Part shown: positions 1 through 36,421 of the stretch, in pieces
Layout: the number at the start of each line of letters is the position of its first letter
Position numbering within the stretch: position 1 is the first letter of the stretch
Source of the DNA: a virus
Taxonomy: Duplodnaviria; Heunggongvirae; Uroviricota; Caudoviricetes
Virus record (IMG/VR): IMGVR_UViG_2718218361_000002
Length of the DNA stretch: 36,421 nt
Direction: 5' to 3' (one strand)
Program-made: the position numbers and the translations under genes
Notes under the pieces: generated by a model
The model's input: the letters and a program-made list of their open reading frames with translations, nothing else
Database searches by the model: none
What the model was told of the DNA's origin: nothing

Positions 1-900
1 TTAACGCAATAATGGACAATCTGGTGGTAATCGACAACGCAACGCCGCCGGAAGTATTTCAATATGAAAGTTTTGTCCGCTCAACGGTTCGCCATCAAGA
101 TTAAAAGTGATTTCGTGTGGGGCTTGTATATCAAACCACGACGAAGCGCCTTCGATAATATTCGGGTTATCTTCGTCAGATTTTAAGGTTGATACGAGAG
201 CCGGAAGAATTTCATCGCCGGTAAAAATGCGCAGTTGCAGCAAGCCATCGTTAATTAACGCGTTCGGACACAATTGCTGACCGCCACCGGCCTGACGCCC
301 GTTACCAATACCAATGACCAGGGCGTCACCTTGCCAGTGAAAGTTTTCACCGCGGATTTCACAACGGTCCGGTTGCAGAGTATCCATGCGCATTAAGCCA
401 TGAATGATGTAAGAGACGCCACCCAGCGCGGCTTTTAATTTTTCCGGCGTTTCTGTGGTAATACGCGTCCCAAATCCGCCTGTCGCCATATTAATAAAAC
501 AGGTTTGTTTGTTGACCTGCGCCATATCTATCGCAATGGCGTTACCGGCAATTGCCAGTTTCAGCGCCTTATCCAGTGCCTCAGGAATCCCTACACTGGT
601 GGCAAAATCATTGGCGGTTCCTAATGGCAAAATTCCCAGCGCGGGTATGTCATCCCCCTCACACTGAATCAACGCCGTAGAAACTTCATTAATGGTGCCA
701 TCGCCACCACCGGCAATCACCGTTGCGACGCCCAACTTCCGGGCCTCCTCTACATATCGTGCGGCATCGCCTTTCTCCCAGGTGACCCGCACATGGATCG
801 TCATTCCTTCCTCACGCAACAGCATAATTGCTTCGCGCAAGGGTAGATTGTCAGTACTTTTGCCATTAAGAATCAGTAAGCTGGCGGGAAATTCTGCCAT
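1..900 (-). CDS. yegS: lipid kinase YegS (diacylglycerol-kinase-like catalytic domain)
   Basis: 299-aa ORF, stop at 1..3 and ATG at 898..900; sequence [15 protein letters not shown]...GGGDGT matches my recollection of E. coli YegS. Confidence 0.9.
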
Positions 901-1314: not shown

Positions 1315-1632
1315 ATGAAAAAGATAGCTGCTATATCATTAATTAGTATTTTTATTATGTCTGGTTGTGCTGTGCATAATGATGAGACAAGTATCGGTAA
1401 ATTTGGTCTTGCATATAAAAGTAATATTCAGCGTAAACTCGATAACCAATACTACACCGAAGCCGAAGCTTCTTTAGCCAGGGGCAGAATATCTGGTGCA
1501 GAAAATATAGTAAAAAATGATGCAGCCCATTTCTGTGTTACTCAGGGCAAAAAAATGCAGATAGTTGACCTGAAGACAGAAGGTGCAGGATTACATGGCG
1601 TCGCTCGTCTGACATTCAAATGTGGAGAGTGA
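1315..1632 (+). CDS. yegR: small lipoprotein-like protein YegR
   Basis: ORF track 1255..1632; I place the start at internal ATG 1315 (MKKIAAISLISIFIMSGCAV, signal peptide with cysteine), preceded by GGGGGAAGGTGAG; 105 aa. Confidence 0.8.
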   Translation: MKKIAAISLISIFIMSGCAVHNDETSIGKFGLAYKSNIQRKLDNQYYTEAEASLARGRISGAENIVKNDAAHFCVTQGKKMQIVDLKTEGAGLHGVARLTFKCGE

Positions 1633-1789
1633 GAATATTTTTTGGTAAGCGTCAAACATGCGCGTTCTGGTTGTGCTTAGCCGGAACCTGTGCGAGCACG
1701 ATGCCGTTACGTGAAAGGCATCGTGCTATGAAGGGAGATTCTATCGATGTGGTCAATGGAAGACGGTGACCAGGGATAGGGCTTATGCA

Positions 1790-1817
1790 TAAAAAATAAG
1801 CCCGTGTAAGGGAGATT
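1790..1817. repeat. attL core (duplicate of the cyaR 3' end)
   Basis: TAAAAAATAAGCCCGTGTAAGGGAGATT, identical to 34888..34915; flanking bases differ on both sides. Confidence 0.85.
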
Positions 1818-1896
1818 TAGGGTGTCACCAGTAGGGGCTTTCAACGGTACAATGCGGGTTTGAGCGGCATAAATTACCACTGAAAGCCCTTAAACG

Positions 1897-2910
1897 TTAC
1901 TCTACTGTGGACACTGTGTGGACACTCTCGGCTTCAGTACCACCTCTTAGCGGATTAAGAGAAATGGCGTCCTGAAGGTACTCTGGCGCAAAATGAGCGT
2001 AAACCATAGTTTGCTCAATCCGCGTGTGACCTAGTATCCGTTGTAGCGTGATAATACTTCCTCCATTAATCATGAAATGAGTGGCAAAGCTGTGCCTTAG
2101 TGCATGTGTGGCTTGCCCCGTTGGCAAATCCGGTTTTATTTCTTTCATTGTTCGTCTGAAGCGAGGGTAATCAGCATCAGGGAATAAAAAACCTCGTTTG
2201 TTATCCGCGATCATTTTGGCAACAGCCTCTGAGATCGGGACGGTGCGTGGTTTGTTTGTTTTCGTTTTAACAAACGTGACGCGGTTATGGATGATATTTT
2301 CTGCTTTCAAACGAGCTGCTTCTCCCCAACGTGCTCCTGTACTCAGGCAAAGAATCGCAATCTTTTTATTGTCGCCGTCAAGTGCTGCAAGCAGTAAGGC
2401 AATTTCTTCCTGTGTGAGATAGCCTGTTTCTGGTTTTTCCTCCTTAAGCCTCTTTGTCCCTCTGATAGGGTGCTCACCAAAGAATAACTCCGCTTCAATC
2501 AGGGCTGTAAACATGCCGCTAATACATGTTAAATCACGATTGATACTCGAAGGTTTAATACCCTGACTTCTTCGGGTGGCGCAGTACTGGCTGATAAGGG
2601 ATTTCGTGATTTGAAATGCGCATGGGTCATTCGTTATTTTTGTGAAGATTTCAATTTTTCCAAGATTAGATTTCCCATGCTCTTCGTGTTTACCCTTTAA
2701 ATCCCACCAGATCTGTGTCAGTTCCGACAGACGTCGTTTGTCTGTTGGTTTTGATAGCCATTCTTTATTGTGGTGGTTGTACAACGTGTATTTTTCGAAA
2801 GCGACAGCTTCGCTTTTCTTATCAAACTTCCTACGGATGCGTTTTCCGTTACGTCCAGTAGGGCGGATGTCCACTTCATATCGACCATCATCGAGTTTTT
2901 TGATTGCCAT
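1897..2910 (-). CDS. int: tyrosine integrase (P2 Int-like)
   Basis: 337-aa ORF; C-terminal HALRHSFATHF...LGHTRIEQTMVYAHF (R-H-R-Y catalytic pattern); immediately inside attL. Confidence 0.95.
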   Translation of the reverse strand: MAIKKLDDGRYEVDIRPTGRNGKRIRRKFDKKSEAVAFEKYTLYNHHNKEWLSKPTDKRRLSELTQIWWDLKGKHEEHGKSNLGKIEIFTKITNDPCAFQITKSLISQYCATRRSQGIKPSSINRDLTCISGMFTALIEAELFFGEHPIRGTKRLKEEKPETGYLTQEEIALLLAALDGDNKKIAILCLSTGARWGEAARLKAENIIHNRVTFVKTKTNKPRTVPISEAVAKMIADNKRGFLFPDADYPRFRRTMKEIKPDLPTGQATHALRHSFATHFMINGGSIITLQRILGHTRIEQTMVYAHFAPEYLQDAISLNPLRGGTEAESVHTVSTVE

Positions 2911-3025: not shown

Positions 3026-3325
3026 TTAACCAGTCTTTTGACCGGAGTGGGGCGACGTTGTTTCGTTTTGCCCAAAGTGTGCGAGAGCGGGCGCAATTTG
3101 CCCGGCTTCTGGAGCTACCTGATCAGTCATGAACCACAAAGTATATTTAGTAAATCTGGGATGTTGTAAGACCTTCATTATGGCTTCAACTCCAGCGTTT
3201 TTTGACCGGCTCTCATAGCTCGAAAGTGAGCTGTAGGCTACACCAGTTAATTCACTGAATTCTTTACGGTTTAACCTTTCAGATTCACGGATTAGCTTCA
3301 ACTTCTCCGAAACGTCTATTGACAT
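3026..3325 (-). CDS. C: immunity repressor C (HTH)
   Basis: ORF track 3026..3397; start chosen at internal ATG (plus-strand CAT 3323..3325), giving 99 aa; C-terminal TKYTLWFMT...QIAPALAHFGQNETTSPHSGQKTG as in P2 C; N-terminal DNA-binding part looks divergent. Confidence 0.8.
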   Translation of the reverse strand: MSIDVSEKLKLIRESERLNRKEFSELTGVAYSSLSSYESRSKNAGVEAIMKVLQHPRFTKYTLWFMTDQVAPEAGQIAPALAHFGQNETTSPHSGQKTG

Positions 3326-3402
3326 AATTACTCCGATTGCGTAATTTCTTGCTGATGGTGTGAAATGTTGTGCTTCTGGAGTTATCCTTTTAGGCAATAA
3401 TT

Positions 3403-3446: not shown

Positions 3447-3722
3447 ATGAATAGACAGCTTGTAAGCGTGACTGATGCCGTGCCTTATCAGGAGTTTGCA
3501 AAACTCATTGGTAAAACTCCAAGAGCTGTAAGGGGTATGATTGAGAAAGGGAAATTACCAGTTATTGAGATTACTGACCCTCAGTCAGTATCGGGGCGTG
3601 CTGGTGAATATTGGGTATACCTTCCGGCATGGAATAACGGACTAAAACTGGCTTATGAAAGCCGTCCTAAAGAGATTCGTGACGGCTGGTTGATGTGGTT
3701 AGGTCTCGGTGAACCACGTTAA
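3447..3722 (+). CDS. cox: Cox excisionase / early-promoter repressor
   Basis: 91 aa; ...PYQEFAKLIGK...GKLPVI...GRAGEYWVYLPAWNNGLKLAYESRPKEIRDGWLMWLGLGEPR; SD AAGGGAGA upstream. Confidence 0.85.
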   Translation: MNRQLVSVTDAVPYQEFAKLIGKTPRAVRGMIEKGKLPVIEITDPQSVSGRAGEYWVYLPAWNNGLKLAYESRPKEIRDGWLMWLGLGEPR

Positions 3723-4688: not shown

Positions 4689-4990
4689 TGTCCTGTTCTC
4701 ATTCAGTTGTATTACTGAATAACGCCTTAAAAATCGCCGTTATGAAAAATGGCGATTTGTCTCTTATTCAACTTTGTCTTGATAAAGAAAAACGCGACAT
4801 CACTGAATCTGTTATCGCGATTTATCAGAATGAATTAAACCTCCTGTCTGATGTGGTCAATTTACTTGTTAAACGCGCTGTATTTCACAAGCAAATCTCC
4901 TCCGTGGATGAACTGACGAAATTAACGACAGAAATTGCCAGCTATTGCGCTGATGAATTTAAAAAACTTAACGACAAAAGGAGCTGGTAA
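4685..4990 (+). CDS. hypothetical early protein (P2 orf81 position)
   Basis: 101-aa ORF overlapping the upstream stop by 4 nt (coupled). Confidence 0.6.
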
Positions 4991-8916: not shown

Positions 8917-10350
8917 ATGAAAAAGCAAAGCGAAATTAACGTAAAAAAATTAGCATCATGGAGATTTTCATTTAAAAACATTGGGTGTATCTCTACAGGA
9001 GAAATTAATGCAAAACCTTTAACGCTTTTATGCGGAAAAAATAATACTGGTAAAACATGGGTTATGTATGGGTTATATGGCTTCCTAAATATGCCATCAC
9101 CATCTTTAAAATTGCCTCAAGTTGCAAATTTTGCCAAAACTCTTCGTGAAAATGGTAAGTTTGAATTAGATGTAATTGAGTGGATAAAAGATAATTTTAC
9201 GTTAATCAAAAGAGAATTTAATAAAGATTCATCTTTAATGCTTAAAGATGTATTCAACACTAATGATAAGGAAATTTTTTCTAATTCAACATTTGACTGG
9301 GTTATAGATGAAGAATCATTAGTATCAAGTGTTTATGAAAAAAAATTGGATGTTAGCCTCGTCATAGGAACCGGCAAAAAAGAAGTAATGCTATTATCCA
9401 AAGATAAAAATAGCAATATCATACAAATGACGCTGCTAGATTCTGCTTTCCCCAGAATTGATGGGTTTATAAACTTAACTCTAAGTCAGTTATTAAAGAT
9501 AGAGTATGATGAAAGCCCAGCATTTTTAATTCCCGCAGAAAGAAATGGCTTGCACCTTTTTTTCAATGAATTAAGTTCCAGAAGAACTGCGTTATTGCAC
9601 CACGCCTCAAAAGAACAGTTCGATCTGAACTCACTATTAATGGATGTAATGAAGTCTAAGTATTCTGCTCCTATAGCAAATTACATAGACTGGCTTAATG
9701 AAATTAAGGTTAATAGGAAAAATAAAAATGGCCAATTTCATAAATTAGCAGAAGAAGTAAAAAAAATAATTTCAGGAAAATATTCAGTTGATCCTGAAGG
9801 GCAGATTTATTTTTCAACGTATAAGAAAGGTAAGACACCTGCAAGTAAAATTGAACTTCATTTATCGTCATCCACTGTTAAAAGTTTGTTTGGCCTGTGG
9901 TTTTATTTAGAGCACCAAGCAAAAACTGGTGATATTTTAATGATTGACGAACCCGAGTTAAATTTACACCCGTCAAATCAGCGAGTAATTGCAAGATTTT
10001 TAGCAAAGCTAGTTAACTCTGGTATTCGGGTTATTGTTAGTACTCACAGTGATTATTTTGTAAAAGAAATCAATAGCTTGATTATGTTGCATGGCGTTTC
10101 TGAAAATATGATTGAAAAACGAAACGCTATCATGCAGAAGCAAGGGATTAGCATCGACTCAATTTTAGACTCTAACCTAGTCGCTGCGTATCTATTTGAT
10201 AATGGCTCAGTCAATGAAATGCAGAAGTCAAATGAAGGGATTAATGCTGTAACTTTTGATGAAGTAATTAATGCCATTAATGACGATAATGATGAAATAT
10301 ATTACTCCTTGGTGGAGAATGCCTCTGATAGTGAGGATGTAGATGAGTAA
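8917..10350 (+). CDS. ABC-type (AAA_15/AAA_21-like) ATPase, OLD/AbiLi/AriA/PtuA-like, family unassigned
   Basis: 477 aa; Walker A CGKNNTGKT, signature-like LSSSTVKSLFGL, Walker B DILMIDEPE, H-loop STHSDYF; ~280-aa insertion between Walker A and B; acidic C-terminal tail; SD TAAGGA; AT-rich. Confidence 0.85.
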   Translation: MKKQSEINVKKLASWRFSFKNIGCISTGEINAKPLTLLCGKNNTGKTWVMYGLYGFLNMPSPSLKLPQVANFAKTLRENGKFELDVIEWIKDNFTLIKREFNKDSSLMLKDVFNTNDKEIFSNSTFDWVIDEESLVSSVYEKKLDVSLVIGTGKKEVMLLSKDKNSNIIQMTLLDSAFPRIDGFINLTLSQLLKIEYDESPAFLIPAERNGLHLFFNELSSRRTALLHHASKEQFDLNSLLMDVMKSKYSAPIANYIDWLNEIKVNRKNKNGQFHKLAEEVKKIISGKYSVDPEGQIYFSTYKKGKTPASKIELHLSSSTVKSLFGLWFYLEHQAKTGDILMIDEPELNLHPSNQRVIARFLAKLVNSGIRVIVSTHSDYFVKEINSLIMLHGVSENMIEKRNAIMQKQGISIDSILDSNLVAAYLFDNGSVNEMQKSNEGINAVTFDEVINAINDDNDEIYYSLVENASDSEDVDE

Positions 10351-10915
10351 TATTATCAATGTAATACAAAGTTGCATCGATCCTACATTTCAATTAATGC
10401 GAGAGCAGGAATGCTGGGTTGTATGCGAAGAGAACCCAGGTGCTACAAATAAAAAATTACTGGTAAACGGAAATGGTATCTATGGATTTTCGCTAGATTC
10501 TAATAGTATTTCTAAACCAGTCTGGAAATTTTTAAAATCTTCTGCTTTACCAGGAGTATGCTCTGTTTGTGATGGAATTTTTGTTACGTCGCACAAAGAC
10601 GTAGATTATTTTATCGTAATAGATCTCAAATCTTATAACTCAAATGGTGCGGCTAAACAGGTAGTTACTGGCATTCATTTTTGTAAGTGGCTATATTCTG
10701 TATTGAATTTACATGGGCATTTGTCAAGAAAAGTGGATTACATTGGTGTAATAAGTAAATTATCGAGGAGGCAGCAATCAGCTAAAAAAACAACTGTTCG
10801 CTCGCAATTGCCTCCTCCTGAAATTTGCTATAATTATCCTGTGTTTACATTGGAAAACTATAACAGATTATCACTGGCGCATATTTGTGACTTTATATAC
10901 AATATGAAAAAATAA
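10343..10915 (+). CDS. small partner protein (190 aa), possible TOPRIM-like or PD-(D/E)xK-like nuclease, family unassigned
   Basis: ATG overlaps the ATPase stop by 8 nt, with GAGGA SD; motifs VVCEEN, CSVCDG, HKDVDYFIVIDLK; AT-rich. Confidence 0.8.
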   Translation: MSNIINVIQSCIDPTFQLMREQECWVVCEENPGATNKKLLVNGNGIYGFSLDSNSISKPVWKFLKSSALPGVCSVCDGIFVTSHKDVDYFIVIDLKSYNSNGAAKQVVTGIHFCKWLYSVLNLHGHLSRKVDYIGVISKLSRRQQSAKKTTVRSQLPPPEICYNYPVFTLENYNRLSLAHICDFIYNMKK

Positions 10916-23830: not shown

Positions 23831-25852
23831 ATGAGCACAAAATTCAAAACCGTTATCACCACTGCCGGTGCAGCAAAGCTGGCAGCGGCAACCGCGCCGG
23901 GAGGGCGGAAGGTCAACATTACCACGATGGCCGTCGGGGATGGCGGTGGTAAATTGCCTGTCCCGGATGCCGGACAGACCGGGCTTATCCACGAAGTCTG
24001 GCGACATGCGCTGAACAAAATCAGCCAGGACAAACGAAACAGTAATTATATTATCGCAGAGCTGGTTATTCCGCCGGAGGTGGGCGGTTTCTGGATGCGT
24101 GAGCTTGGCCTGTACGATGATGCGGGAACGTTAATTGCCGTGGCGAACATGGCCGAAAGTTATAAGCCAGCCCTTGCCGAAGGCTCAGGGCGTTCGCAGA
24201 CCTGCCGCATGGTCATTATCGTCAGCAGTGTGGCCTCAGTGGATCTGACCATCGACACCACAACGGTGATGGCGACGCAGGATTACGTTGATGACAAAAT
24301 TGCAGAACATGAACAGTCACGACGTCACCCTGACGCCTCGCTGACCGCAAAAGGTTTTACTCAGTTAAGCAGTGCGACCAACAGCACGTCTGAAACACTG
24401 GCTGCAACGCCGAAAGCCGTTAAGACGGTAATGGATGAAACGAACAAGAAAGCGCCATTAAACAGCCCTGCACTGACCGGAACGCCAACGACGCCAACTG
24501 CGCGACAGGGAACGAATAATACTCAGATCGCAAACACGGCTTTCGTTATGGCCGCGATTGCCGCCCTTGTAGACTCGTCGCCTGACGCACTGAATACGCT
24601 GAACGAGCTGGCGGCGGCGCTGGGCAATGACCCGAATTTTGCTACCACCATGACTAATGCGCTTGCGGGGAAGCAACCGAAAGATGCCACCCTGACGGCA
24701 CTGGCGGGGCTTGCTACTGCGGCAGACAGGTTTCCGTATTTTACGGGGAATGATGTTGCCAGTCTGGCAACTCTGACAAAAGTCGGGCGGGATATTCTTG
24801 CGAAATCGACCGTTGCCGCCGTTATCGAATATCTCGGTTTACAGGAAACGGTAAACCGAGCCGGGAACGCCGTGCAAAAAAATGGCGATACCTTGTCCGG
24901 TGGACTTACTTTTGAAAACGACTCAATCCTTGCCTGGATTCGAAATACTGACTGGGCGAAGATTGGATTTAAAAATGATGCCGATGGTGACACTGATTCA
25001 TACATGTGGTTTGAAGCAGGCGACAACGGCAATGAATATTTCAAATGGAGAAGCCGCCAGAGCACCACAACAAAAGACCTGATGAATCTTAAATGGGATG
25101 CTTTGTATGTTCTTGTCAATGCCATTGTAAATGGCGAAGTAATATCAAAATCAGCAAACGGCCTACGTATTGCTTATGGTAATTACGGATTCTTTATTCG
25201 TAATGATGGTTCAAATACATACTTCATGTTGACAAACTCCGGTGACAACATGGGGACTTATAACGGATTAAGGCCATTATGGATTAATAACGCTACTGGC
25301 GCTGTTTCGATGGGGCGTGGCCTTAATGTTTCAGGGGAGACGCTTTCAGACCGTTTTGCTATTAACAGCAGTAATGGTATGTGGATTCAGATGCGCGATA
25401 ACAACGCTATCTTTGGGAAAAATATAGTTAACACTGATAGCGCTCAGGCGTTGCTTCGCCAGAATCACGCTGACCGCAAGTTCATGATAGGTGGACTGGG
25501 GAACAAGCAATTTGGCATCTACATGATTAATAACTCAAGGACAGCCAATGGCACCGATGGTCAGGCGTACATGGATAATAACGGTAACTGGCTTTGTGGC
25601 TCGCAAGTTATTCCTGGCAACTATGGCAATTTTGATTCCAGATATGTGAAAGATGTTCGACTTGGTTCACAGCAATATTATGGAGTGAACAACTGGCAAA
25701 CATGGAATTTCCAGTGCCCGTCAGGTCATGTATTGTCTGGTATTAATGTTCAGGATACAGGGTCCAACTCTGCCGATAATATAGCGGGCGTTTATTACAG
25801 ACCCGTTCAAAAGTATATAAATGGCACCTGGTATAATGTAGCGAGCGTTTAA
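23831..25852 (+). CDS. H: tail fiber protein
   Basis: 673 aa; conserved N-terminus [25 protein letters not shown]; Asn/Gly-rich C-terminal region. Confidence 0.9.
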
Positions 25853-26671: not shown

Positions 26672-27898
26672 ATGTTACAGTTCAGCTTTGTATCAAATGA
26701 CGTTGTTATGACTTACGACGGTGACAGCGGAGAACAAATAATTTGGGTTTGGGAGAGTTTAAATAAATTTCAAACAGTATGCATTTCACGCATTTTTAAC
26801 TTTCAACTCCAGGACTTGAGAAACCCACCGTCAACCGTTCAGGATTTTAATGATTATGAATATTCCTTTAATTTTGGCACGCTTAATAATGAATACATAA
26901 CAGTTCCGGGACGGATTCTAAGCATTAATCGAGATGTCCTTATACATAAGTCCATCAAGCTTGAAAGGAAAGTATTTGCGTCAGAACGCAACGTCTCCAT
27001 TTTTGGTCGGCTTTCAAAACTACTCGATCACACTAATCCCATCATCATCGGAGGAGATAAGCCGGAAGCTATACCAAAAAGCGTATTCCAGGAGTTGCAA
27101 AGTAAATTCCCCAACACAGGGGAACTGGATCGCTATGCTAATGCAAGGGTTCACGCTATTCTCGCAGGTTATCTTGATGGTATGAAAGATGCTCGCGAAC
27201 GGTATGAACATTACCTAAACAGAAAAACAGTGATCAGAAAAACCGACAAACTGGATTTAGAAGTTTTAAATAAGCTCGAAATTGAGAAATATACACTCAT
27301 AAGAGACATTATCCAGGATGCGTTGAATAACAAAACTAACTTGTCTGAAGATGACTGGCAGAGCCTGATGATACCCTTCATCACATTACTTTTTCCAAAA
27401 TATATCAAGGTCCTCGAGAAGGTTAAAATTTTCGACTATTACTCTAATCCTTCGGCTAAAACAAATCGGTTTATAGACATTGCACTGGTGGATGCAAACG
27501 GCAACCTTGATATCATCGAAGTCAAAAAGCCGTTTGATGATAAGATCCTTCGCAAGACGCCCTATCGCGACAACTATATTCCTACATCAGAACTTAGCGG
27601 CGGTATTATGCAGGCTGAAAAGTATATTTTTCATTTATCTAAATGGGGTGTTAAGGGTGAAAAAGAGCTTACGAATGCCTACAAGAATTCTCTGCCAGCG
27701 GGAATGTGTATTCGTATATCTAACCCAAAAGCCATCATCATTGTCGGGCGCGATCAGATAGCGAACGGTAACATGACCGACGGTCAGTTGCTTGATTTTG
27801 AGATAATCAAACGTAAGTACGCCAACATGATAGACATATTGACGTACGACGACCTGTTGCGTCGACTTAATAATACGATTGAAGCATTGAAAGGTTGA
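26672..27898 (+). CDS. PD-(D/E)xK nuclease-like protein, Shedu/DUF4263-like candidate (accessory gene at the G-FI locus, P2 Z/fun position)
   Basis: 408 aa; SD GAGGAA; C-terminal half has RFIDIALVDANGNLDIIEVKKP (D...D...ExK) followed by AIIIVGRD; AT-rich. Confidence 0.8.
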   Translation: MLQFSFVSNDVVMTYDGDSGEQIIWVWESLNKFQTVCISRIFNFQLQDLRNPPSTVQDFNDYEYSFNFGTLNNEYITVPGRILSINRDVLIHKSIKLERKVFASERNVSIFGRLSKLLDHTNPIIIGGDKPEAIPKSVFQELQSKFPNTGELDRYANARVHAILAGYLDGMKDARERYEHYLNRKTVIRKTDKLDLEVLNKLEIEKYTLIRDIIQDALNNKTNLSEDDWQSLMIPFITLLFPKYIKVLEKVKIFDYYSNPSAKTNRFIDIALVDANGNLDIIEVKKPFDDKILRKTPYRDNYIPTSELSGGIMQAEKYIFHLSKWGVKGEKELTNAYKNSLPAGMCIRISNPKAIIIVGRDQIANGNMTDGQLLDFEIIKRKYANMIDILTYDDLLRRLNNTIEALKG

Positions 27899-34568: not shown

Positions 34569-34787
34569 ATGTTTCATTGTCCTTTATGCCAGCATGCCGC
34601 ACATGCGCGTACAAGTCGCTATATCACTGACACGACAAAAGAGCGTTATCACCAGTGTCAGAACGTGAATTGCAGCGCCACGTTCATCACTTATGAGTCG
34701 GTACAGAGATACATCGTGAAGCCGGGAGAAGTCCACGCCGTGAGGCCGCACCCGTTGCCGTCAGGGCAGCAAATTATGTGGATGTAA
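34569..34787 (+). CDS. ogr: late-gene transcription activator Ogr (zinc finger)
   Basis: ORF track 34506..34787; start at ATG 34569 (MFHCPLCQHAAHARTSRY...CQNVNCSATF); 72 aa. Confidence 0.9.
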   Translation: MFHCPLCQHAAHARTSRYITDTTKERYHQCQNVNCSATFITYESVQRYIVKPGEVHAVRPHPLPSGQQIMWM

Positions 34788-34798
34788 TTACAAACAGG

Positions 34799-34824
34799 AA
34801 GCCCCTCAGTCGAGGGGCTTTTTT
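34799..34824 (+). terminator. rho-independent terminator after ogr
   Basis: GCCCCTC-agtc-GAGGGGC followed by TTTTTT. Confidence 0.8.
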
Positions 34825-34887
34825 GTCGATGTGGTCAATGTGTGGACGTGACCAGAAATAAATCCTTTTATTTCATTGTATTACGCG

Positions 34888-34915
34888 TAAAAAATAAGCC
34901 CGTGTAAGGGAGATT
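34888..34915. repeat. attR core (lies in the 3' terminator end of cyaR)
   Basis: TAAAAAATAAGCCCGTGTAAGGGAGATT, identical to 1790..1817. Confidence 0.85.
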
Positions 34916-34975
34916 ACACAGGCTAAGGAGGTGGTTCCTGGTACAGCTAGCATTTTATGGGTTATGTTTTTCAGC
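34889..34975 (-). ncRNA. cyaR: CyaR (RyeE) Hfq-dependent sRNA
   Basis: Reverse complement reads GCTGAAAAACATAACCCATAAAATGCTAGCTGTACCAGGAACCACCTCCTTAGCCTGTGTAATCTCCCTTACACGGGCTTATTTTTT, matching my recollection of E. coli CyaR; sits between the prophage and yegQ as in K-12. Confidence 0.85.
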
Positions 34976-35009
34976 GAAACGGATGATAACCTTAATAAAT
35001 ACAGCTGTA

Positions 35010-35025
35010 TGTGATCGGTTTCTAA
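35010..35025 (-). promoter_or_regulatory. candidate CRP half-site upstream of cyaR
   Basis: TGTGA-containing motif (TGTGATCGGTTTCTAA) about 35-50 nt upstream of the cyaR 5' end; cyaR is known to be CRP-activated. Confidence 0.35.
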
Positions 35026-35059: not shown

Positions 35060-36421
35060 TCACTTACCGTGGGGATTACGCGTGGTTTCCCCGGAGAAAT
35101 TACGCATCAGCAGCGCGTAATTGAGCTCAAGATCCTGCGGGACCGGGAGCCACACAGTATAACCATCGCCTGGTGCTATCGGCATAGCTTCGCCTTTGGC
35201 GTTTTCCATGTGCTCAAGGGTAAAATTAATGTTGCCTTGCGGCGTCATCAGCTCAAGGCTGTCGCCAACGGAGAATTTATTTTTCACCGCTACCGCCGCG
35301 AGGTCCCCCTTGCGCTCACCGGTAAACTCACCAACAAACTGCTGGCGGTCAGAAACTGAATAACCGTATTCGTAGTTCTGATAATCGTCGTGAGTATGAC
35401 GACGCAGGAAACCTTCGGTATAGCCACGATGCGCCAGACCTTCCAGAGTTTCCAGCAGGCTGGTATCGAACGGTTTTCCCGCAGCGGCGTCATCGATAGC
35501 TTTGCGGTAAACCTGTGCGGTGCGTGCACAATAGTAGAAAGATTTGGTACGACCTTCGATTTTCAGCGAATGCACGCCCATTTTGGTCAGGCGTTCTACA
35601 TGGGCGATGGCGCGCAGATCTTTCGAGTTCATGATGTAAGTGCCGTGCTCATCTTCAAACGCGGTCATATACTCGCCCGGACGCTGGGCCTCTTCGATCA
35701 TAAACACTTTGTCGGTTGGTGCGCCGATACCCAGCGTCGGCTCAACATTTTGCACCGGAATCGGCTCGTACTTGTGTACGATGTTGCCAACATCATCTTC
35801 TTTCCCTTCCTGGACGTTGTACTCCCAGCGGCAGGCGTTGGTGCAGGTGCCCTGGTTCGGGTCGCGCTTGTTGATATAGCCAGAGAGCAGGCAGCGACCG
35901 GAGTAGGCCATGCACAGCGCGCCGTGAACGAAGATCTCGATCTCCATATCCGGCACCTGATTGCGGATCTCTTCAATCTCTTCCAGCGACAGCTCGCGAG
36001 AGAGGATCACGCGGGTCAGGCCCATTTGCTGCCAGAATTTCACCGTCGCCCAGTTCACGGCGTTAGCCTGCACCGAAAGGTGGATCGGCATTTCAGGGAA
36101 GTGCTCACGCACCAGCATAATCAGCCCTGGATCGGACATAATCAGCGCATCCGGCCCCATTTCCACCACCGGTTTCAGGTCACGGATAAAGGTTTTCAGC
36201 TTGGCGTTGTGCGGTGCAATGTTGACCACGACATAAAACTTTTTCCCCAGCGCGTGGGCTTCATTGATGCCGAGCTGAAGATTTTCGTGGTTGAATTCGT
36301 TGTTGCGCACACGCAGGGAATAACGCGGCTGGCCCGCATAAACAGCATCTGCGCCATAAGCGAAAGCGTAACGCATATTTTTCAGCGTTCCCGCCGGGGA
36401 AAGGAGTTCCGGTTTAAACAT
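35060..36421 (-). CDS. yegQ: U32-family peptidase-like protein YegQ (RlhA)
   Basis: 453-aa ORF filling the window edge (ATG at 36419..36421); MFKPELLSPAGTLKNMRYAFAYGADAVYAG... matches recalled YegQ. Confidence 0.9.
   Translation of the reverse strand: MFKPELLSPAGTLKNMRYAFAYGADAVYAGQPRYSLRVRNNEFNHENLQLGINEAHALGKKFYVVVNIAPHNAKLKTFIRDLKPVVEMGPDALIMSDPGLIMLVREHFPEMPIHLSVQANAVNWATVKFWQQMGLTRVILSRELSLEEIEEIRNQVPDMEIEIFVHGALCMAYSGRCLLSGYINKRDPNQGTCTNACRWEYNVQEGKEDDVGNIVHKYEPIPVQNVEPTLGIGAPTDKVFMIEEAQRPGEYMTAFEDEHGTYIMNSKDLRAIAHVERLTKMGVHSLKIEGRTKSFYYCARTAQVYRKAIDDAAAGKPFDTSLLETLEGLAHRGYTEGFLRRHTHDDYQNYEYGYSVSDRQQFVGEFTGERKGDLAAVAVKNKFSVGDSLELMTPQGNINFTLEHMENAKGEAMPIAPGDGYTVWLPVPQDLELNYALLMRNFSGETTRNPHGK

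Follow-up and report, generated by a model that had tools for sequence, protein, structure and literature searches.

Integration of a P2-type prophage at the 3′ end of the sRNA gene cyaR and the parental origin of the shared terminator

When the attachment core of a prophage is at the same time the 3′ end of a host gene, is that end in the lysogen supplied by the host or by the phage? The question is raised by a stretch of 36,421 nucleotides (IMG/VR record IMGVR_UViG_2718218361_000002; hereafter the window), in which the exact direct repeat of 28 nt TAAAAAATAAGCCCGTGTAAGGGAGATT occurs twice, at 1790-1817 and at 34888-34915, the second copy lying across the end of cyaR. The repeats enclose a P2-type (Peduovirus) prophage of 33.1 kb, and the flanks are E. 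coli chromosome. We put at about 0.93 the probability that this prophage sits at locI, the preferred site of phage P2, and that the site is the 27-nt 3′ end of cyaR.

cyaR, the prophage and its two junctions

A first-pass annotation of this DNA had read the reverse complement of 34889..34975 as the CyaR sRNA, and this reading holds. The gene (CyaR/RyeE, 87 nt, minus strand) gives the sole Rfam match across the window, a full-length hit to RF00112 at 34977..34892 (-) that scores 100.7 bits where the gathering score is 47 (model positions 1-85 of 85), and 87 of 87 nt are the same as in MG1655 cyaR (b4438; NC_000913 2167114-2167200), with no change at the 3′ end that alters the terminator. The sequence is shared by the lysogen, the empty-site strain and K-12, the score of 100.7 bits recurs at the empty site and in a K-12-type strain, and the proposal that integration leaves cyaR intact is thus borne out at the level of sequence. 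In an alignment of the lysogen with the empty site, divergence begins 2 nt past the annotated 3′ end of cyaR. The intrinsic terminator hairpin occupies 34897..34924 (-), with an 11-bp stem containing one U.G wobble, a 6-nt loop UCUCCC and a predicted fold of -15.4 kcal/mol; it was also found by a terminator scan and in the Rfam structure line, and the U-tail UAUUUUUU follows directly at 34889-34896 (-). Stem, loop and the tail UUAUUUUUU make up a rho-independent terminator that would serve as the Hfq-binding module. Read-through at the CyaR terminator is substantial, reaching 41% in an hfq-minus double-terminator plasmid assay (PMC9765468).

Upstream of the gene lie a -10 element TATCAT (34983-34988, minus strand) and, as had been noticed earlier, a TGTGA-containing CRP-like motif at 35010..35025. 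This predicted CRP-type box, TGTGATCGGTTTCTAA, has the pattern TGTGA-N6-TCTAA, is centred at -42.5 from the annotated +1, and is kept in position and in part conserved in 78 species loci; cAMP-CRP is known to govern CyaR transcription (PMC3333887). The host neighbours, all named from RefSeq annotation, are yegQ (trhP) upstream of cyaR (35060..36421, minus strand; annotation of identical DNA), yegR on the attL side (1315..1632, plus strand) and yegS in the left flank (1-900, minus strand). ARAGORN detected no tRNA gene anywhere in the window.

The DNA that resembles phage P2 (AF063097) has its exact limits at 1790 and 34915, and the inner 27 nt of the repeat are the canonical P2 core, that is, the attP annotated in AF063097 at 24356-24382. 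At attR the core (34889..34915) is CyaR nt 61-87, with the exact repeat reaching 1 nt further, to 34888. The core had been described as the final 27 nt of CyaR, made up of the terminator hairpin and the U-tail; the first half of this statement stands, whereas the second does not, in that from the 5′ arm of the hairpin the core takes in no more than the final 2 nt, besides the loop, the 3′ arm and the U-tail. The other 9 of the 11 nt in that arm belong to the adjoining host DNA. The attL core at 1791..1817 (exact repeat from 1790) is an orphan copy of the last 27 nt of CyaR, in agreement with the earlier view of it as a duplicate of the 3′ end. A fold of 1900..1760 (-) does not restore the CyaR hairpin there, as the 5′ arm is absent. 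A four-way alignment of P2 attP, the empty attB of strain AUSMDU00014361 and the two junctions of the window resolves attL as B-core-P′ and attR as P-core-B′, the 27-nt core being the same in attP, attB, attL and attR, as for a P2-type Int/attP at locI. The order at attL is the yegR-side B arm, the core and the P′ arm beside int, and that at attR is the ogr-side P arm, the core and the body of cyaR.

The genes and sites expected next to these junctions are present as well. On the attL side are int, encoding a P2-type tyrosine integrase of 337 aa (1897..2910, minus strand; Pfam Int_N and Phage_integrase), the gene of the immunity repressor C (3026..3397, minus strand; Pfam HTH_3, and immunity repressor in the annotated phage matches), which is probably shorter than given because its reading frame was counted from the first possible start, and cox, for the excision directionality factor and repressor (3447..3722, plus strand; Pfam Phage_Cox, 1.7e-42). 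The last prophage gene before attR is ogr, the late-gene activator (34569..34787, plus strand; Pfam Ogr_Delta, 1.1e-21; ogrK in RefSeq), followed by the rho-independent terminator of ogr and the F operon at 34799..34825 (plus strand; P2 annotation 24265-24288 and scan), whose hairpin scores on the minus strand too. The DNA is 96.5% identical to P2 over the 2.2-kb int-C-cox-B region and about 96-97% identical in the D/ogr region. By homology to annotated P2 sites, putative Int arm-type sites TGTGGTCA and TGTGGACG lie in the P arm at 34825..34852 (plus strand; P2 24293-24320, annotated as 'Int, P arm'), a putative IHF site lies between P arm and core at 34857..34890 (plus strand; P2 24324-24357), and the P′ arm carries a putative Cox-binding region at 1834..1907 (plus strand; P2 24399-24472) and two putative copies of the Int arm-type site TGTGGACA at 1905..1931 (plus strand; P2 24470-24496). 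The arm-site consensus of P2-type integrases is tgTGGaCa (PMC3448106). The locus would accordingly combine a heterobivalent tyrosine integrase encoded beside attP, direct-repeat arm sites on both arms, an IHF site between P arm and core and Cox sites on the P′ arm, and the att sites together with int and cox appear intact. The orphan attL copy was also considered as a terminator for int and rejected, since in the P2-type sequence the P′ arm plus core shows no fold (z = -0.3); the corresponding segment does fold in two lineages other than E. coli.

Recombination of P2 at attB locI, with Int, IHF, Cox and a 27-nt core, was reportedly described by Yu, Bertani and Haggard-Ljungquist in 1989 and by Barreiro and Haggard-Ljungquist in 1992, and the integration site in the window is this locI. 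The window shares with that system the core, the layout of P arm, IHF site, Cox sites and P′ arm, and the order of the prophage from int at attL to ogr at attR. It differs from P2 in cargo, bearing PD-T4-4 at the position that separates the replication genes from the portal gene, and Shedu at the one between the tail-fibre and tail-sheath genes. The junction between attR and cyaR is also the same as in PR-X of K-12, a P2 remnant at locI with ogrK and yegZ; PR-X, however, keeps only about 0.63 kb (a truncated D, ogrK and attR), whereas the prophage of the window is of full length with both att sites intact. In the K-12-type locus a deletion starts within the attL core and reaches into gene D.

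Position of the crossover within the terminator

P2 Int and IHF recombine attP with attB, and Cox is required in addition for excision. In the window, Int, as a heterobivalent tyrosine recombinase, and IHF would have joined the attP core, flanked by a P arm with its IHF site and by a P′ arm with its Cox sites, to the same 27 nt of attB, giving an attL of yegR side, core, P′ and int and an attR of ogr, P, core and cyaR body. Since the two core copies in the window are identical, the parental origin of the parts of the core is not readable there, and lysogens in which the phage and host cores differ are informative instead. We number the core in the RNA sense (A1 A2 T3 C4 T5 C6 C7 C8 T9 T10 A11 C12 A/G13 C14 G/A15 G16 G17 C18 and onwards), so that core position n corresponds to window coordinate 34915-(n-1). 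Variation among hosts and phages is found at positions 13 and 15.

One such case is E. coli EC11, which carries at cyaR a divergent P2-like prophage with a P arm of the Citrobacter-host type. Its attR reads ...TTACGCAGGC, the Citrobacter allele, and its attL reads P′-AAACG-CCCTTACACGGGC, which is phage-specific through position 5 and, at positions 13 and 15, canonical for E. coli. From the start of yegQ to the 3′ end of cyaR, EC11 differs from the window at 2 of 1,533 nt, and these are core positions 13 and 15; over 300 nt of the B arm there is no difference. A scan of viral contigs for attL of the EC11-type phage family gave 14 sites: all 3 in E. coli B arms have the E. coli allele, and GCAGGC is found in each of the 11 from other hosts, among which 9 have a Citrobacter-type B arm. 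In E. coli hosts, attL of this family carries the E. coli allele in 4 of 4 cases. A scan for free attP sites, meant to give the phage alleles directly, returned only six matches, mostly attL with a ACGCGTAA-type B arm.

Other junctions tell a similar story. The two ends of one contig from an E. coli host have GCAGGC at attR (L173) and ACACGGGC at attL (L225). In an IMG/VR prophage contig (L125/L162) whose host yegQ flank is 98.5% identical to E. albertii, attR has the P2 allele beside a classical P2 P arm, and attL has the allele of E. albertii itself; next to it comes an old remnant that the E. albertii type strain shares. In L106, from an Enterobacter-like host (yegQ about 92% identical to Enterobacter species), the 5′ arm GCCTGCGT is joined to a P2-type 3′ arm, which leaves a C.A mismatch in the stem, and the predicted hairpin is -11.5 kcal/mol versus -16.9 for the native Enterobacter hairpin. 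We infer from these pairs of alleles that the crossover falls within core positions 6-12, at 34904-34910 of attR and 1806-1812 of attL. The interval in attR (34904..34910) reads GTAAGGG on the plus strand and CCCUUAC in the RNA; DNA at 34911 and above would be of host origin, and 34889-34903 and below of phage origin. In these mismatched-core lysogens the attR sequence 3′ of core position 12 comes from the phage, which supports the earlier statement that the phage rebuilds the 3′ end.

Strand exchange in CCCTTAC (RNA sense) would take place in the 3′ half of the terminator loop and in the bases with which the 3′ arm begins. In the lysogen of the window, CyaR nt 1-65 would then be host DNA, and the last 15 nt (34889-34903), comprising the remaining 3′ arm and the whole U-tail, would be phage DNA; the displaced host segment would be orphaned at attL (1791-1805), with neither promoter nor hairpin. 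The phage core equals the host core in this strain and the CyaR sequence is therefore unchanged; as far as sequence can tell, CyaR is unchanged in this lysogen.

Not all junctions fall into line so readily. At attR of L180 (IMG/VR contig 2526164670_000016), from an E. coli host, a Citrobacter-type P arm is joined to the canonical E. coli allele, and at attR of L138 (IMG/VR contig 2579779146_000008) a classical P2 P arm is joined to GCAGGC; the two can be reconciled with a crossover at positions 6-12 only on the assumption of polymorphism at positions 13 and 15 among phage lineages. An alternative explanation places positions 13 and 15 in the overlap, so that a heteroduplex is formed that segregates at replication and either junction can receive either allele. 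Outcomes of the EC11 type and of the L180 type would then both be accounted for with no polymorphism in the phage. Under 50:50 segregation, however, the chance that all 4 attL of the Citrobacter-type phage in E. coli would carry the host allele, as they do, is 1/16, and heterology in the overlap normally blocks recombination by lambda-type integrases, which also counts against a heteroduplex. We regard this explanation as unlikely.

L180 and L138 also bear on a second alternative, in which the crossover lies 3′ of core position 15, the stem at attR is entirely host DNA, and the phage gives only the U-tail or nothing of the RNA. Both contigs, indeed, carry the canonical allele of their hosts beside a 'foreign' P arm, as this explanation would have it. 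It could also draw on the GCAGGC allele, which is present in 30 E. coli genomes. Twenty of these are one O1/O2:K1:H7-type lineage together with the type strain ATCC 11775, which has GCAGGC at attR and ACACGGGC at attL, a pair that fits a tail-side crossover equally well if the host lineage is natively GCAGGC. We had expected GCAGGC in lysogens only, and this was wrong: 3 genomes of a separate E. coli lineage have it at an apparently empty site. The allele is therefore not exclusively phage-borne, and an empty-site lineage with GCAGGC does exist. Taken alone, the ATCC 11775 and ST131 pairs fit either position of the crossover, and the ST131 lysogen is uninformative as a heterologous pair because it has ACACAGGC at both ends. 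The remaining pairs argue for positions 6-12 instead. The EC11 host is the same as the window over 1.4 kb upstream and 300 nt downstream save at positions 13 and 15, and precisely there it matches the Citrobacter allele of its Citrobacter-type phage; attL of the EC11-type family has the E. coli allele in 4/4 E. coli and GCAGGC in 11/11 other hosts. Moreover, a tail-side crossover would require the host of L106 to keep natively a C.A mismatch in its terminator, and the E. albertii pair to unite a non-canonical host with a non-canonical phage. It is thus very unlikely that the phage contributes only the tail, and a crossover at positions 6-12 is the reading we retain.

The locus in other Enterobacteriaceae and at empty sites

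Part of the 'bacterial' B arm of the window itself resembles phage DNA. At 1730..1789 (plus strand), immediately before attL, lies a fossil P2-type P arm (TCGATGTGGTCAATG..GTGACCAG), recognised by homology to the phage P arm. The two have TCGATGTGGTCAATG and GTGACCAG in common, and the fossil has a 16-nt deletion over the IHF region and one decayed arm repeat. Its local alignment score is 22, against a mean of 7.6 (SD 1.25, maximum 14) in 2,000 shuffles. Empty E. coli sites carry this sequence as well. Escherichia sp. E1V33 has neither the fossil arm nor yegR, and yegS directly follows cyaR. When E. coli cyaR is compared with that of E. albertii and of E1V33, only positions 13 and 15 differ, and both are in the phage-supplied segment. 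These observations suggest that the 'empty' E. coli attB may be a decayed attR, and that the canonical 3′ end of CyaR in E. coli, including that of K-12 on which all experiments were done, may stem from an ancient P2-like prophage. YegR was also considered as cargo of the fossil prophage and rejected, as a tblastn search against 50,697 phage records returned only prophage-derived records with host flank; a Pfam search of YegR gave no family.

A scan of species-representative genomes based on YegQ yielded 80 Enterobacteriaceae loci. In 79 of them cyaR follows yegQ, and the usual layout is yegQ-cyaR-yegS with yegR absent. Among the 75 loci with a recognisable terminator, 9 have a P2-type P arm that starts about 17 nt past the U-tail of cyaR and comprises an IHF-like GAAATAAA box and arm repeats; their hosts include E. 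albertii, Trabulsiella, two Citrobacter, Enterobacter, Huaxiibacter and Scandinavium. Homologues of Ogr and gpD are kept in only 3 of these 9 loci, and most of the remaining ones look like remnants, because yegS comes within a few kb. The stem of the terminator differs between genera, and the phage cores show the same variants.

These comparisons also dispose of the idea that cyaR is an sRNA carried as cargo by the phage and not a host gene used as its attachment site. The gene does lie directly against the end of the prophage and shares one part with phage DNA, base for base; nevertheless, the idea is refuted by the identical cyaR at the empty site, and it is at odds with the position of cyaR beside yegQ in 79/80 species loci, mostly prophage-free, and with P2 itself, which carries no more of cyaR than the last 27 nt, so that we consider it extremely improbable. 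There is next to no chance that the 28-nt repeat is a coincidental match or the target-site duplication of a transposon, for which only its nature as a direct repeat could speak, given that none of 100 dinucleotide shuffles contained a match even when 3 mismatches were allowed, that it is identical to the annotated P2 attP, and that the flanks show the exact reciprocal pattern of recombinants.

Precedents, consequences and frequency

The arrangement is textbook P2 biology and already known, as we judge from Bobay et al. 2013 and from the MG1655 annotation. In MG1655 the annotated cryptic prophage PR-X (2167183-2167811; ogrK, yegZ) overlaps the last 18 nt of cyaR, and the CyaR of K-12 itself ends in remnant-prophage DNA. 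A literature search found no paper joining cyaR, prophage and attB. Details that may be new are where the crossover lies, how the terminator is rewritten in hosts with a mismatched core, and that the empty site bears a fossil arm.

Integration at the 3′ ends of tRNA and tmRNA genes is reportedly the subject of work by Campbell, by Williams (2002) and by Kirby et al. (1994; CP4-57 in ssrA). The comparison with tRNA 3′-end integration made in the first-pass annotation is apt, in that the displaced 3′ segment is replaced by a copy borne by the element. In both situations attB shares sequence with the 3′ end of a structured RNA gene, the crossover lies in or next to a hairpin loop between symmetric stem arms, the displaced segment is left as an orphan, and the replacement may differ from the native copy; because the element carries the 3′ segment, the target gene stays intact. 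Unlike in the tRNA/tmRNA class, however, the target in the window is an Hfq-dependent regulatory sRNA with an intrinsic terminator rather than a tRNA-like fold, so that the prophage is an analogue in mechanism and not a member of that class. P2-type integrases are described as usually sitting 'between other genes' (PMC3448106). Bobay et al. 2013 (PMC3603311) describe ryeE (= cyaR) in E. coli as 'previously known to be targeted by phages', citing Wassarman 2001, and name ryeB/SdsR in Salmonella (Balbontin 2008) as an sRNA target or insertion hotspot of prophages; these reports are not known to describe the crossover position, allele replacement in mismatched hosts or a fossil arm at the empty site.

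Since the 3′ arm and the U-tail at attR would be phage DNA, a phage with a differing core would change the sRNA. Natural cases of such rewriting are the hosts of EC11 and L173, in which ACACGGGC has become ACGCAGGC, and the E. albertii lysogen, with the reverse change. These cases, together with the decayed P arm at the empty attB, the P arms next to the U-tail in 9 of 75 species loci and the variants common to phage cores and host terminators, leave about evenly balanced the proposition that P2-like phages write the 3′ end of cyaR and do not merely restore it, with long-term co-evolution of the Hfq-binding sRNA module and the attachment site. The phage-supplied half of the Hfq-binding module of CyaR (hairpin and U-tail) is interchangeable between phage lineages, and gain of a prophage, or its loss by a route other than site-specific excision, could therefore silently alter the 3′ end of the sRNA. 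The C.A mismatch in the Enterobacter-like lysogen is predicted to cost about 5 kcal/mol, and P2 in an Enterobacter host with the 5′ arm GCCUGCGU would be predicted to give a weaker terminator, more read-through and less CyaR. cyaR offers a concrete and testable case of sRNA allele turnover driven by mobile elements, and comparative analyses of sRNAs, in which covariation in terminators is usually taken as purely host evolution, call for caution. The main result confirms a P2-type lysogen at locI; the wider value is real, though modest.

To describe how common these states are, we took a census of 5,426 complete E. coli genomes, in which the split into empty sites, remnants and lysogens is approximate. 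An intact P2-type attL junction is present at the locus in 814 of them (15%), and the arrangement ogr-attR-cyaR in 1,132 (21%), K-12-type remnants included. An attB-type junction was matched in 4,574, a count that probably takes in K-12-type remnants because matching pieces were joined. The last 60 nt of CyaR are the same as in the window in 4,834 genomes and differ by 1-2 nt in 590; about 11% of complete E. coli genomes have a non-canonical CyaR 3′ end. One of these variant genomes, SaT040, was examined and has the allele ACACAGGC, which pairs perfectly with the 5′ arm.

Resemblance of the host B arm to the phage P arm

Beside the attL or attB core of E. coli locI, the preferred P2 attachment site at the 3' end of cyaR, the host B arm is a decayed P2-type P arm (1730-1789 in the window, 4730-4790 in the compared locus L002 and 1562-1620 in L205, from E. 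coli SaT040). The host B arm and the phage P arm share one block of 15 identical nucleotides and a second block of 8 nt, with the IHF region deleted from the host copy; their alignment scores 22, and no shuffled sequence scored above 14. The supposedly 'empty' locI of E. coli therefore has the look of a fossil attR. The B arm of some E. coli strains (attL of contigs L102, L129, L191 and L199) opens with ACGCGTAA, 8 nt that resemble the phage P arm, in place of ATGCATAA. This stretches the attL/attR identity to 35 nt and ties the two arms more closely together.

The CyaR 3' end and terminators near the att sites

The 3' arm of the CyaR terminator is polymorphic within E. coli (L205, 1540-1550; L209, 4385-4395 and 37970-37980; L207, 4040-4050), and 590 of the 5,424 E. 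coli genomes have a non-canonical sequence in the last 60 nt of CyaR. The canonical arm, ACACGGGC, includes a U.G wobble; the allele ACACAGGC, read in SaT040 and in one ST131 lysogen, gives a perfectly paired stem, and a third allele, ACGCAGGC, is found in 30 E. coli genomes. The T-run can also be unequal at the two ends of one prophage, with 7 T at attL vs 6 T at attR in the IMG/VR contig pairs L098/L153 and L145/L128. Lysogeny in strains of these types leaves the encoded CyaR U-tract one U shorter.

At attL of four non-E. coli P2-like prophages (L097, L114, L091 and L202), the P' arm and the core have complementary sequences (..CTGCTGTAAGGGGG.. vs CTCCCTTACGCAGG), so that in these lineages P' and core together fold into a 14-bp hairpin of about -23 kcal/mol, directly followed by a U-run. 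On this predicted fold, int is followed closely by a complete intrinsic terminator. No P' + core hairpin was found in P2 proper by the fold test (z = -0.3). In the window prophage, the ogr terminator hairpin (34799-34825) has a terminator-like score on the minus strand too in the terminator scan. It could therefore halt transcripts that pass the CyaR terminator, for which substantial intrinsic read-through is reported (PMC9765468), and keep them from continuing antisense into ogr.

The cyaR-yegS gap in other species

Many species without a P2 signature bear inserts of about 0.5-4.3 kb in the cyaR-yegS gap (species-representative loci L005-L084, about 11533 onward). An insert of roughly 550 nt is common to several Enterobacter species, and those of Klebsiella sp. 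WOUb02 and Raoultella scottii reach 4.3 kb. The spot just past cyaR looks like an insertion hotspot of a general kind. In L005 (CP169086.1, labelled Enterobacter hormaechei B17-3), sequence affinity switches at about 11533: E. coli-like DNA (95-99% identity, 100% for cyaR) takes in yegQ, cyaR and no less than 4.4 kb upstream, and Enterobacter-like DNA (84-87%) begins right after the cyaR U-tail, with YegS 74% identical to that of E. coli. The junction marks either recombination with its breakpoint at the cyaR terminator or a chimeric assembly.

Cargo genes of the prophage

At the position of tin/old in P2, with the replication genes on one side and the portal gene on the other, the window prophage carries two cargo genes, for an AAA_15/AAA_21 ATPase (8917-10350; PADLOC PD-T4-4_A, 2e-112) and its 190-aa partner (10343-10915; PD-T4-4_B, 1e-15), a candidate anti-phage system. 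A 408-aa Shedu protein (26672-27898; PADLOC SduA, 1e-219; Pfam SduA_C) is encoded between the tail-fibre assembly and tail-sheath genes, in the place of Z/fun in P2.
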